A stretch of DNA of 64,000 bases. Origin: Prionailurus viverrinus. Lineage: Eukaryota. Below the pieces are notes generated by a model. That model was not told where the DNA came from and ran no database searches. It saw only the letters and a list, made by a program, of their open reading frames with translations. The stretch covers positions 66,926,464 through 66,990,463 of the forward strand of contig NC_062566.1 of assembly GCF_022837055.1 (NCBI RefSeq), given 5' to 3'. This document shows, piece by piece, positions 49,905-60,150 of this stretch; position 1 is the first letter of the stretch; every line of letters begins with the position of its first letter. A program made the position numbers and the translations under genes.

Positions 49905-50575
49905 TCTCCAGGATGTGACTCACAAGGGAAAAAACCTGAAATGAAGTCAATCCTATTAAGAAAGCACATCTAAATGGAGCTATGAGTCCACTAGAGAAGT
50001 GGGGCTTATGCAAGGCCATCTGGGCACAGAACGTTAACGTTAAATATAGTTCATTCCTGGGGCACCTGGGTAGCTTAGACTGTTAAGTGTCTGACTTTCG
50101 CTCAGTTCATGATCTCACAGTTGGTGAGTTTGAGCCCTGCATCGCGCTCGGTGCTGACAGCTCAGAGCCTGGAGCCTGTTTTGGATTCTGTGTCTTCTCT
50201 GCCCCTCTTCCACTTGTACTTTGTGTGTCTCTCTCTCCCTCTCTCAAAAATAAATAAATATAAAAAAATTTTTAATAATAAATATAGTTCATTGCCAAAC
50301 TGCAATATACTGCTTCTTGCAGCCCCAGATGGAAAGCTGCAATTCAACAGGAATTAGACTCTTTTAGCCAATTATAATTTTGCAAAACAATTTATGTAAG
50401 CCATCTTGGAATGCTCTTTTTTGCCATTAGAGACCCACTGCTTTTACCCATCAGCAGAGCACAATTTGGATTTTCTCCCAATATGTGTCTCCCAAATTGC
50501 AATTCTTAAGTCCCCAAATAAATTTTTGTTTGCCTTGCAGCTTCACTGCAAATTTTGTTTGACATTACATGATGT
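49905..50575 (+). mobile_element. 5' LTR of a degraded gammaretrovirus-like ERV (interrupted by a SINE at 50059-50277); boundaries approximate
   Basis: 49990-50058 and 50278-50560 align with 59770-60150 (for example gaagtggggcttatgcaag, tagttcat(t/a)gccaaactgcaa, cagaaattagact(c/g)ttttagc, caaattgca(a/g)ttc(tt/ct)..., gcaaattttgtttgaca). Confidence 0.6.
50059..50277 (+). mobile_element. CAN-SINE inserted in the ERV 5' LTR
   Basis: Head GGGGCACCTGGGTAGCTTAGACTGTTAAGTG; TSD aatatagttcatt. Confidence 0.85.
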
Positions 50576-51071
50576 CAGAAGTGGGACCGGAGAGCATCTC
50601 ATCTCCCTCCTCTGGCTCTCTCATAGATTCAAATGAGGTACTTAAAGAGTCCGTTGTGCCCTGTCATCTCCCCAGTGGTCCCAGTCAGAGTCTGATAAGT
50701 CTTCTTGTAATCCAAATTTCCCAGTCTGAGGTTCTGCTTTGAGTGTCCTCTGTTGCCACTTTTGTTCTCAGAACTTCACTTCCTGTCTGTTGCCCTGGTG
50801 AGTACTTAGTTCCTCTTGAAAATGCAGTTTGCTTTTTGAGAAATAGGCTGCTGGGCAGCCTTCTTCTGGAAATCCTACTGGTTTTATGTATAAGAATTAT
50901 GGGCCCTCATCCTGCAAATTCCTGTCTCTCTGAACAATGATTACCTGGGATGATTTAAAATTTAATTGGCCAACCTGGGGCTCTTTCAAAATTCCTATGT
51001 TAGTTTATATGTGCAATCAATTAGAGAAAGAATAGAAGACTAAATAATCCATATGAGGAATTTGTTTGTAA

Positions 51072-51103
51072 AAGAGAGAGAGTGAGCAGGGGAGAGGGGC
51101 AGA

Positions 51104-51139
<36 letters not shown>

Positions 51140-51259
51140 AGCAGGTTCCACACTCAGTGAGGAACCTGATGTGGAACTTGATCCCATGACCCTGGGATCA
51201 TGACCTGAACTGAAATCAAGAGTCGGGTGCTCAACCGAATGGAGCCACCAAGGTGCCCC
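51072..51259 (-). mobile_element. CAN-SINE (reverse) with (GA)n at 51107-51134
   Basis: ...gaatggagccaccaaggtgcccc end; gagcaggggagaggggcagagg body. Confidence 0.8.
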
Positions 51260-51299
51260 ATGGGAAGCTTATTTTAATTATCATTTCAAGTCTTCAAAA

Positions 51300-52100
51300 T
51301 GTGTTCATGACTCACAAATTGTTTCCTTCCAGGATACTAATTCTAAACTAAGGCAAATTCTGAATTGTCTCAGAGACTTACTAAACTTGAAGAGTCTTCT
51401 GCTGCTCCATCACTCCCTCCATTTGCTCCCCACTGCCTATCTGTCCACCATCCCTCTCTCATTTTCTTGCTGAACTTCCTTTCTATGATTATCTAGAGAC
51501 TTCTCAGGACCCACCCCTACCTGTAGCATCTTTTATAGTTAAGCCAGGAGATGACATTTTAGGATCCCAGTTCTCTCGTTCTCCTTGGAGTAAAGCTGAA
51601 CTATGAGCTATTACCAAGGAGTTTCCTAACCCTAGAGAAAACCCTATTGGGTTTGCTAGACAATTCTTGATTGTAGTCCAAATTTATAAGCCAGGATTCT
51701 CTGATCTTTATCAGCTCATTCTCATGTTAGTAGATGAAAGACTTGCTAGAGAATGGATGCAAAAAGGAGTATGGACAGATCTTTTATTGGATTTCCCCAC
51801 AAAAAGGCTGTAGACATGAAAGAAGCCTCAAAATTAGCTAAAAGACTCCACAAAGAGATTCTTGATGGTTTTCCCCATACTATTGACCTGGAAAAAAATC
51901 CAAAAAAATATGTCCAAAGATCGACCTGGAAAAAAATCCAAAAAATGTGTCCAAAGATCTGATGAATGGGTTTTGTATGATTTTGAAAGATGTGAGAAAA
52001 TTTTTAAGCAATTATCTGGCATTGAAAAAGTTGACCATCACACCTCCACCTTGTTAAATTGTGCTTTTATTGAAGGTTTGCAAGAGGAACCTGCAATTCA
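51300..52100 (+). mobile_element. ERV internal region: gag (capsid-like) remnant, frameshifted
   Basis: Translation WSKAELAITKEFPNPRENPIGFARQFLIVVQIYKPGFSDLYQLILMLVDERLAREW resembles the gammaretroviral CA N-terminus. Contains a 38-bp tandem duplication at 51886-51960. Confidence 0.4.
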
Positions 52101-52430
52101 GATTTAAAAATTTTTAATTAATTAATTAATTTTTCAAAACCTGCAACTTAAACAAACAAAAACAAAAACCACCCCTGCAACTTAACTGGGCTACTATGAA
52201 ACTCCATGACCTAGTTAATTACTGCTGGGCAGCTCTCCAAAGCTATTCAAAAAGACACAAAAAAGAAACCCACAGAAGCCCTAAATACTCAAGTATAAGC
52301 AACCCAAATTAGGAACATGCAATTACAACAATTGACACACATCTTTTTTTCCAAAAAAAGGAAATATTTTTAAATTTTAACCTGATGAAAAATTTCAAGA
52401 CGATTTCTTGGTTACTGTCCTTGTGTTATC

Positions 52431-57753: not shown

Positions 57754-57978
57754 GGGGTGCCTGGGTGGAACGGTCAGTTAAGCAACTGACTCTTGACCAA
57801 GTCATGATCTCACGGTTTGGTTTGTGAGTTGGAGCTCCAGTCCAGCTTCGTGCTGATGGCAAGGAGCCGGCTTGGGATTCTGTCTCTCCTTATCTCTGCC
57901 CTCCCCCGCTTGTGCTCTCTTTCTCTTTCTCAAAATAAATAAATAAACTTTAAAAAAAAGATTAAAAAAAGAAAATAA
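57754..57978 (+). mobile_element. CAN-SINE
   Basis: Head GGGGTGCCTGGGTGGAACGGTCAGTTAAGC; tail CAAAATAAATAAATAAAC; TSD aattacctgcca / aattatctgcca. Confidence 0.85.
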
Positions 57979-58633
57979 TTATCTGCCACTAGCCCTTGCC
58001 TCATAAAAACACATTGGAGCCTGACTAGTTTTCCAACAGACTCTTCTGGCTGTAAGACCCTCTTTTGTACAAGGTTCTTTCAACTACGCTATGATATCAA
58101 AAGAAGCATTTATCTGGCTGCTTGAATAAAACAGACCCCTGGTCTTCTCCTGTCTTACCCTCCATACCTACAAATGAGTCTGTTGATAATCAGACTTAAA
58201 AAGGAATATTTTGCACTCCCACAGAATATATTTTTGCCCGTGCCTATAAGTGACAACCTTGGACATTTACCTGCCTAGACAGTCAGAAAAGAACGGGACA
58301 ATATCTCCTAGGTTATTCAATTTCTCCCTTCACTATACTTCAATTGGTCACAGGGATCTTTCCTGCCCTAAACACTTACCATAGAAACAAGAGAGTTCTA
58401 TCCATTATAAATGACTACCCAGATGACAACTCCTCCAAATAGGAAGACAATGGCTACACACATTCTCAGGACTGTGACCTCCCACAGGGTACAACCCTAA
58501 TGAAAGAATGGATTTGGGGATCCATTTTGGGATCCTTTTTTGGAATCCTTTTTCCTGGTGGGATCTGCTGCAAATGAGGCCATGGTTAAGAATCTGCCCT
58601 AGGCTGTTAATAGAATAACCAGATCTGGCAGGG

Positions 58634-58758
58634 TGGGGGGTGCTGGGTGGCTCAGTTGGTTAAGCATCCGACACTTGATCTCAGCTCAGGTCTTGATCTA
58701 GGGTTGTGACCCCGCTGGGCTTGGAGCCTACTTTAAAAAGAAAAAAAAAAAAAAAAAG
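58634..58758 (+). mobile_element. CAN-SINE, 3'-truncated, with poly(A)
   Basis: GGGGTGCTGGGTGGCTCAGTTGGTTAAGCATCCGAC... then A-run. Confidence 0.7.
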
Positions 58759-59095
58759 AATAGCCTGATCCACTGCTAGGGCCATTAGAGCTCAGTGGTC
58801 TCTAGATTCCCTTGCCTGAGTTGTACAAGACAACAGAAGAGATTTGGATTACTTCCTGGCTGTTGACTGAGTCTGTGTCATCGCTAATACTTCCTGCTGC
58901 GCAACTAGATTAACACCTCATAGCAGGCTGAATTGGAAACTTAAACTGGCCATCATTAAAAGGAGTTTCTTTCAGCCCTCTAACTCAGTTTAATTTTAAG
59001 TTTTCAGACCTTTTCAGTTGACTCCCCACAGGACTCCCCTTCTAAGATCTGGATTACAAATAATCATACTTATTATTGTTCTTATGTGTTCCTTT

Positions 59096-59320
59096 TTTTT
59101 TTTTTTAATTTTTTTTTTAACGTTTTATTTATTTTTGGGACAGAGAGAGACAGAGCATGAACGGGGGAGGGGTAGAGAGAGAGGGAGACACAGAATCGGA
59201 AGCAGGCTCCAGGCTCCCAGCCATCAGCCCAGAGCCTGACGCGGGGCTCGAACCCACGGACCGCAAGATCGTGACCTAGCTGAAGTCGGACGCTCAACCG
59301 ACTGTGCCACCCAGGCGCCC
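59096..59320 (-). mobile_element. Young CAN-SINE (reverse); TSD tgtgttccttttt
   Basis: ...caaccgactgtgccacccaggcgcccc; CpG-rich. Confidence 0.9.
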
Positions 59321-59699
59321 CTGTGTTCCTTTTTAATTATAATTACATTACTGATGCTTTGTATGTCTCACTGTTGTTTGACCATCTAAAATGTCAAAAT
59401 TATGGACACATTAAGGCTTAAAATAAAATGATCAACCATGGCTATCCATTGGCAACCCCTGAAGACAAGTCAACTATCAACTTCATGGACTTTTAAGATG
59501 AGGACAATGCCTAAGACTTGCTTCCTGAAAACCTCTTTGTTGCTGTGACTGTATGGTCTTAGTGACATTCTTTATAACATTTCATTTTCCCTCCTCTGTG
59601 GGACATGACCTTCTAGGAATGAACCTTCCTAGATAAGTAGACAACAGATGATCCAATGGTTGATCATTAATGCTTTCCAAGGAAAGATCTTGGTCAAAA

Positions 59700-60150
59700 G
59701 GGGAAAACATGAAAAGAAAAAATTGAAATGGAATCACTGCTGTCAGGAAAAATGGAGCCAGAAGGCCATTAGGGAAGTGGGGCTTATGCAAGTCCACCTC
59801 TGCAGGGAACATGAACTTTAAGTATAGTTCACTGCCAAACTGCAACATCTTGGCTTCCTGCAGTCCCAGAAAGCAAGCTGGAAATTTAACAGAAATTAGA
59901 CTGTTTTAGCTAATCATTGTAAGTTACATCATATGTAAGTCTTCTTGGAATCCCCCCTCTGCACCCCCCCTTTTTTTTTTTTTTTTTTTTTGCCTTTAAA
60001 GACCCTCTGCTTCCCCGCCCCCCCCCCCCTCCCGTCAGTGGAGCACTATTTGGTTTTCCTCCCAAATCTAAGTCTTCCAAATTGCAGTTCCTCGGACTGC
60101 AAAAAAAATTTGCCGCCTCGATGTAAATTTTGTTTGACACATCTCAGACA
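59700..60150 (+). mobile_element. 3' LTR of the ERV (boundaries approximate), with poly(T)/poly(C) expansions at 59950-60030
   Basis: Aligns with the 5' LTR (see 49905-50575). Confidence 0.6.

Follow-up and report, generated by a model that had tools for sequence, protein, structure and literature searches.

A full-length but decayed class I endogenous retrovirus between PIP4P1 and a PNP-type promoter in Prionailurus viverrinus

What occupies the interval between PIP4P1 and PNP in the genome of Prionailurus viverrinus, and does it contribute to the regulation of PNP? An earlier note on this locus had proposed a degraded, gammaretrovirus-like provirus of ~10 kb in the interval, on the plus strand and with both long terminal repeats (LTRs). 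We followed up this proposal in a 64-kb stretch of contig NC_062566.1 (hereafter the window; all positions are those of the whole stretch) and found that positions 49923-60141 (+) hold an endogenous retrovirus (ERV) of class I (gamma-like), 10.2 kb in size, full-length but dead, whose limits agree within ~20 bp with those given earlier (49905-60150). Without the short interspersed elements (SINEs) nested in it, the provirus measures ~8.1 kb, which is the usual proviral size. The class I features found were an LTR pair, a primer-binding site (PBS), a polypurine tract (PPT), gamma-like reverse transcriptase (RT) and RNase H, an integrase (IN) of the rve type and a gamma-type env. As located with tblastn guides, the gag, RT, RNase H, IN and env remnants all lie on the plus strand, in an order colinear with a gammaretroviral genome; the first four had been noticed before, and env is added here. 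The proposal is supported by the LTR pair, the PBS, the PPT, the colinear gag-pol-env remnants and a pol closest to that of murine leukemia virus (MLV) and xenotropic MLV-related virus (XMRV). With a probability of roughly 93%, we regard 49923-60141 as a single fossil provirus, a class I gammaretrovirus-like ERV that has decayed neutrally and has no present function. The element is of an ordinary, already known kind, and such fossil proviruses are routinely masked in mammalian genomes. Its parts are as follows.

49919-49922 and 60143-60146 (+): CTCA at both places, candidate target-site duplication (TSD), read from the sequence
49923-50569 (+): 5' LTR, 409 bp without a nested SINE and one copy of the TSD of that SINE; ends in TTACA; CCAAT at 50368, TATAA at 50373, AATAAA at 50517
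50570-50587 (+): PBS, TGATGTCAGAAGTGGGAC, adjoining the terminal CA of the 5' LTR; fits tRNA-Leu(CAA) at 16/18 positions
50822-52330 (+): gag remnant with frameshifts and stops; matrix (MA)-like from 50822 (FNWPTWGSF at 50958-50987), capsid (CA)-like at 51538-52104
53408-54643 (+): RT remnant in several frames with many stops; LQYVDDLLL decayed to LQYVYDLLL at 53894-53920
54682-55126 (+): RNase H remnant; Pfam RNase_H 31.5 bits (cut-off 25.8)
55381-56835 (+): integrase remnant (tblastn segments 55381-56219 and 56674-56835); Pfam rve 37.0 bits (cut-off 32.6)
56900-59083 (+): env remnant, from tblastn, motifs and matches of the transmembrane subunit (TM) in PDB; the start of the surface subunit (SU) is approximate
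59696-59707 (+): PPT, AAAAGGGGAAAA, followed by CA and then TGAAAAG, so that it lies two bases ahead of the TG of the 3' LTR; read from the sequence
59710-60141 (+): 3' LTR, 432 bp, from TGAAAAG to GACACA, with a low-complexity poly-C/poly-T (T21) expansion at ~59945-60030 that is not found in the 5' LTR

Long terminal repeats and priming sites

The paired LTR-like repeats that the earlier note had seen at 49.9-50.6 kb and 59.7-60.15 kb were confirmed by several comparisons. A repeat scan returned, amid many SINE families, a direct repeat of 82 nt with 80% identity (49972-50053 and 59750-59831), and BLASTN of 49500-51200 against 59300-60600 gave colinear high-scoring segment pairs (HSPs) with E-values of 5e-23, 1e-17 and 4e-12. 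Global alignment of 49923-50569 with 59710-60141, the SINE having been removed, produced 384 aligned columns with 295 matches (76.8%); the note had been prepared to give up the provirus if the LTRs showed no significant alignment over at least 300 bp. The differences consist of 51 transitions and 38 transversions, corresponding to a Kimura two-parameter (K2P) distance of 0.28. Homology between the LTRs reaches upstream to ~49930/59717, with a score of 15, shuffled sequences averaging 9.0 (sd 1.3) and 1 of 300 of them reaching this score. It breaks off at 50565-50569/60140, right at the edge of the 3' LTR, the score further on being that of the shuffle mean. The 3' LTR begins with TG, and both LTRs finish in CA. 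The end of the 5' LTR was fixed at 50569 because the PBS follows directly; the start of the 3' LTR was put at 59710 because of the arrangement of PPT and TG, and that of the 5' LTR near 49923 by alignment.

The PBS was compared with TGGTGTCAGAAGTGGGAT, which is complementary to the 18 nt at the 3' end of human tRNA-Leu-CAA-2-1 as tabulated in PMC10359600, and proved to be the sole match to it of at least 14/18 on both strands of the window (128 kb). A tRNA-Leu(CAA) primer is usually linked to class III ERV-L rather than to gamma-like ERVs, and a literature search for the use of a tRNA-Leu PBS in class I ERVs found nothing. At the other end of the element, the PPT together with the start of the LTR (AAAAGGGGAAAACA followed by TGAAAAG) resembles the MLV sequence (AAAAAGGGGGGAA followed by TGAAAGA).

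The CTCA pair at the outer borders is only suggestive of a proviral TSD, and at ~23% divergence a 4-bp duplication is often unrecognisable. For reference, the flanks that the empty site of a single insertion would join are ...GTGACTCA on the 5' side and TCTCAGACAC... on the 3' side; as an empty-site junction that would fix the TSD, they run from ...ATGTGACTCA to (T)CTCAGACACAGG....

Remnants of pol, env and gag

The tblastn guides (MLV gag, pol and env, and human PNP) were used for locating frames only, the claims being based on Pfam and PDB. When the unstitched forward frames (3100 aa, each stop being written as X) were searched, only weak Pfam matches were obtained (RVT_1, E=0.012; RNase_H, E=1.8e-5). 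Frames were then stitched according to the tblastn HSPs, and the stitched translations were tested against Pfam and PDB. In stitched pol both rve and RNase_H exceed their cut-offs, so that pol has the retroviral profile matches whose absence the earlier note had named as the other finding that would speak against a provirus; RVT_1 fell short of its cut-off with 22.1 bits (E=1.4e-4), and RT_RNaseH was matched at E=0.008. Among solved structures, stitched RT-RNase H-IN matched the RTs of XMRV and MLV with E=7e-63 to 4e-60 (216 bits) over 522 query residues, the scores of foamy virus RT, Ty3 and a lentiviral RT, 5ovn, being ~54, 29 and 23 bits, respectively. The integrase part, in which a zinc-binding region (near 55624-55700), the catalytic core (55837-56219) and a C-terminal SH3-like domain (56674-56835) can be told apart, matched the integrases of prototype foamy virus and human immunodeficiency virus in PDB. 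Pol is closest to the MLV/XMRV type. A word-indexed protein search for a named family of pol returned only distant ERV-like pols of at most 38% identity, from turtles, fishes and sharks, and no named mammalian family. A run of 27 A residues lies within the RT remnant (53980-54006).

In SU the env remnant retains a CXXC motif, CWIC, near 57462-57494; at 58383-58394 it has RNKR, a sequence of the furin type. In TM we found a motif resembling the immunosuppressive domain (ISD; VVQDNRRDLD, 58820-58855), a C-x6-CC motif (C-VIANTS-CC, 58871-58900) and a hydrophobic anchor (59051-59083). Pfam matched env to TLV_coat at E=0.022, and the top PDB matches of the TM fragment were all gamma-type TMs, namely that of HERV-FRD/syncytin-2 (E=4.4e-4), followed by syncytin-1, HERV-T and MLV p15E.

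The gag remnant, the weakest of the items listed in the earlier note, carries the major-homology motif Q-x3-E-x7-R at 51949-52005. Its closest relative in a word-indexed search was a protein with 77% identity (P0001) encoded on a Logan contig from SRR34070827 (L001). A gag profile was built from P0001 and two stop-free stretches of the window and searched against 1.84 billion representatives, and its CA region recovered 206 proteins at E<=1e-3. Among the long matches, an opossum protein (UniRef K7E0E8) continues after the matched part into RVT_1 and RNase H, and a pika Gag-like protein (XP_058533684.1) into a CCHC knuckle; these two have the architecture of Gag-Pol and of Gag. By its sequence, then, gag is present at 50822-52330, in what appears to be a lineage outside the Pfam Gag_p30 model. 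The CA remnant also contains a 37-bp tandem duplication at 51885-51959 (two copies, 94% match).

Two Logan contigs represent further copies of the family. L001 (1874 nt) is 82-88% identical to 50879-52499 and may be an orthologue from another carnivore or a paralogue. It does not have the SINE that splits gag in the window at ~51046-51262, and it keeps ~550 nt that are gone from the window at ~52330, including a zinc-knuckle remnant (CHYC...) of the nucleocapsid (NC) and the protease motif VDTxT. No aspartic protease remnant was recognisable between gag and RT in the window; because L001 retains VDTxT, this absence is a loss through decay and not a trait of the family. The second contig (L002; SRR22936691, 2371 nt) is more distant, at ~75% identity; it has an apparent gag start (MRSSLSKG...) and shares with the window the MA-like motif FNWPTWG. 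Neither contig provided a third LTR, as L001 begins ~310 nt and L002 ~95 nt downstream of the PBS.

Compared with known systems, the element is most like the gammaretroviruses MLV and XMRV. It shares with them the layout LTR-PBS-gag-pol-env-PPT-LTR, the long RT-RNase H alignment, LQYV(D>Y)DLLL, the rve core, the CXXC motif of SU, and the ISD-like motif and C-x6-CC of TM. Against the MLV pol guide, identity is ~44% over 124 residues in the RT fingers and palm and ~32% in the RT connection. It differs from MLV and XMRV in that the PBS fits tRNA-Leu(CAA) and not tRNA-Pro or tRNA-Gln, that gag is too divergent for Gag_p30, and that the element is wholly non-functional. With HERV-FRD/syncytin-2 (ERVFRD-1) it has in common the TM core (PDB 1y4m, the top match given above) and LDSLA..VVxxNRRxLD with C-x6-CC; however, only ~42 residues align and the frame is broken here. 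Env lineages recombine freely, and nothing indicates that the element is a member of the HERV-FRD (MER50) group. The gamma-like ERVs of carnivores resemble it in host order, in class and in being degraded full-length proviruses (dog CfERVs, PMC3093408; felid class I ERVs, PMC4373062). The commonest PBS of the dog gamma-like CfERVs is tRNA-Pro (PMC3093408), whereas here it is tRNA-Leu. Most felid gamma-like integrations have been dated to the diversification of modern felids (PMC4373062); by its K2P distance the present copy is much older.

Decay, age and alternative readings

No open reading frame (ORF) of the provirus survives. One forward frame alone contains 143 stops, and the longest ORFs, of ~100 aa, are mostly derived from SINEs. 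Besides the deletion of ~0.55 kb at ~52330, which took NC and the N-terminus of the protease, ten carnivore tRNA-derived SINEs, ~2.1 kb in total, are nested in the element:

50055-50279 (+): SINE within the 5' LTR, with the target-site duplication AAATATAGTTCATT on both sides
~51046-51262 (-): SINE interrupting gag
52570-52807, 52965-53202 and 53213-53429 (-): three SINEs filling the former protease region, 52570-53429
55123-55316 (+): SINE just upstream of the integrase
56378-56600 (+): SINE inside the integrase
57752-57960 and 58637-58757: two SINEs nested in env
59085-59323 (-): SINE located after env and ahead of the PPT

The SINEs of 52965-53429 stand nearly head to tail, with a run of 40 T residues at 52976-53015. 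Rfam (36 bits) and ARAGORN (Ala, Gln, 'SeC') called tRNAs at 24993-25076 (-), 13356-13440, 53112-53196, 53340-53423 and 59232-59316. These calls were rejected as tRNA genes, since each coincides with the tRNA-like head of a carnivore SINE.

The age was calculated as T = K/2r from the K2P distance of 0.28, LTR divergence having also been used for dating in surveys of carnivore ERVs (PMC3093408; PMC4373062). With the rates applied to felid ERVs (2.3e-9, 5e-9 and 1.2e-8 per site per year; PMC4373062), ages of 61, 28 and 12 million years were obtained, respectively. LTR divergence suggests an age of ~30-60 million years, and we favor the older end of this range because all ORFs have been lost and ten SINEs are nested in the element. 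The insertion is therefore predicted to be widely shared among carnivores. No orthologue from another species was retrieved, either when two window ORFs close to the 3' LTR were looked up as exact sequences or when nine flank ORFs were queried as one concatenated sequence.

Several points weigh against a single class I provirus of this age. Gag matched neither Pfam Gag_p30 nor any PDB structure, either in the window copy or in the better-kept L001, the best profile being Retrotrans_gag at E=0.04, and its identity is taken from its position, from the major-homology motif and from profile matches to unnamed Gag and Gag-Pol proteins. The initial bases of the 5' LTR are mutated (CAAGGG, as against TGAAAAG in the 3' LTR), so that it has no TG and its start is uncertain by ~20 bp. 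The CTCA/CTCA duplication is 1 nt out of register with the end of the 3' LTR; taken as 5 bp, ACTCA and TCTCA agree at 4/5 positions. The age has LTR divergence as its one source and changes greatly with the rate assumed. Finally, the element is assigned to its class and to no named family.

Two other origins of the locus can be weighed on the same evidence. The tRNA-Leu primer, which gave HERV-L its name, would fit a class III (ERV-L-type) provirus, and the PBS indeed agrees with tRNA-Leu(CAA) at all but two of 18 positions. This is all that the element shares with ERV-L, whose pol is spuma-like and which is generally known to be without env; here the pol score for the MLV/XMRV RT is about four times that for foamy virus RT, the RT motif is the gammaretroviral LQYVDDLLL type, and env is represented by a gamma-type TM with an ISD-like motif and C-x6-CC. 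On pol and env we rejected the ERV-L assignment, which is effectively refuted. Alternatively, two related but independent insertions, or a recombinant of two proviruses, could have left an LTR at each end of a composite locus, and the unclean TSD, the internal deletion of 0.55 kb and the heavy rearrangement by SINEs would agree with such an origin. It is nevertheless very improbable, as the PBS adjoins the 5' LTR and the PPT the 3' LTR, no domain is repeated and all follow the canonical order on a single strand, the length without SINEs is that of a normal provirus, and no extra LTR fragment was found inside the provirus or elsewhere in the window. A single class I provirus remains the reading that we prefer. 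The anatomy, the homologies and the decay of the element are shown by its sequence; its mode of origin, its age and its lack of a present function are inferred.

The following course of events is one that we infer from standard retrovirus biology. A tRNA-Leu(CAA)-primed retrovirus would have integrated into the germ line of a carnivore ancestor, at an intergenic site ~400 bp ahead of the core promoter of PNP and in the orientation of PNP, its two LTRs being identical at that time. Neutral decay has since reduced the LTRs to 77% identity and broken all reading frames; ~0.55 kb, comprising NC and the start of the protease, was deleted, ten carnivore SINEs were inserted and several microsatellites expanded. 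Today the provirus encodes nothing and is most probably only a 10-kb spacer, by which the PIP4P1 end of the intergenic DNA has been moved farther from PNP.

The provirus and the PNP promoter

The genes around the provirus were recognised from Pfam matches of exon-sized ORFs. OSGEP (TsaD, minus strand, ~30.3 kb) and APEX1 (Exo_endo_phos, plus strand, 33.9-35.7 kb) lie upstream, followed by exons of PIP4P1/TMEM55B (Tmemb_55A) on the minus strand at 37.7-39.8 kb, with an ATG at ~39792. The order OSGEP (-), APEX1 (+), PIP4P1 (-) within 28000-39800 is that of human 14q11.2. A compound microsatellite, (TC)17 (TA)27, is present at 48626-48715, ~1.2 kb upstream of the provirus. On its downstream side, outside the provirus, we found:

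~60250-61000 (+): PNP-type CpG-island promoter with inverted CCAAT at 60510, TATAA at 60535 and GC boxes at 60603, 60641 and 60658
60675 (+), start: PNP-type exon 1, ATGGAGAACGG followed by gtgag, four codons (Met-Glu-Asn-Gly)

The identification as PNP is putative and draws on the four-codon exon 1, on the motifs and type of the promoter and on synteny with human 14q11.2; even with E relaxed to 100, a search of 60600-64000 gave no exon 2 of PNP. Other SINEs occur downstream of exon 1 at ~61400-61870 and ~62990-63160. From ATG to ATG the PIP4P1-PNP interval measures 20.9 kb, 10.2 kb of which is provirus, its SINEs included; this agrees with the earlier account of a ~21-kb interval enlarged by the provirus and SINEs, the human interval being presumably ~8 kb. 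The end of the 3' LTR is ~110 bp from the CpG island, 394 bp from TATAA 60535 and 534 bp from the ATG. Of the 100-350 bp that the earlier note had given for the distance to the CpG island and the TATA box, the figure for the island stands, and the TATA box is slightly farther away.

It had also been suggested, with reservations, that the 3' LTR serves PNP as an alternative promoter or enhancer. Co-option of 59710-60141 for either purpose would be favored by its sense orientation and its closeness to the island and the TATA box, and the exaptation of LTRs as promoters or enhancers is well documented in general (for example, PMC10863107). In spite of this, co-option appears very unlikely. The 3' LTR has none of the three motifs CCAAT, TATAA and AATAAA, all of which are present in the 5' LTR, the homologous positions reading CTAAT, ATTGTAA and AAAAAAA. 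Its promoter-proximal part carries the poly-C/poly-T expansion, and its divergence is that of neutral expectation, with no better preservation. The promoter of PNP is complete in itself, its inverted CCAAT, TATA box and GC boxes following 370-520 bp downstream of the LTR. A search of the literature library found no paper tying PNP to an LTR promoter or an LTR-driven transcript. With its core motifs lost and the PNP promoter intact, the suggestion is unsupported. A broader possibility, that the provirus belongs to an old class I lineage not described so far, which used tRNA-Leu(CAA) as its primer, has a Gag outside Gag_p30 and has gag relatives in a marsupial and a lagomorph, and that its 3' LTR, fixed ~400 bp from PNP since early carnivores, gives PNP enhancer activity despite the lost promoter motifs, we likewise hold to be a long shot. 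Judged from the motifs, the provirus most probably has no present role, and PNP would be driven by its own promoter.

The importance of this provirus is modest, as degraded class I ERVs are routine in mammalian genomes and repeat libraries, and it shows neither coding capacity nor any sign of co-option. It accounts for half of the intergenic distance between PIP4P1 and PNP in this genome. Its insertion was tolerated ~400 bp ahead of the TATA box of PNP, which suggests that the essential elements of the PNP promoter are located no farther upstream than this. Being one dated insertion in which ten SINEs are nested, the provirus could also be used, by its presence or absence, as a marker for the phylogeny of Carnivora and their relatives.

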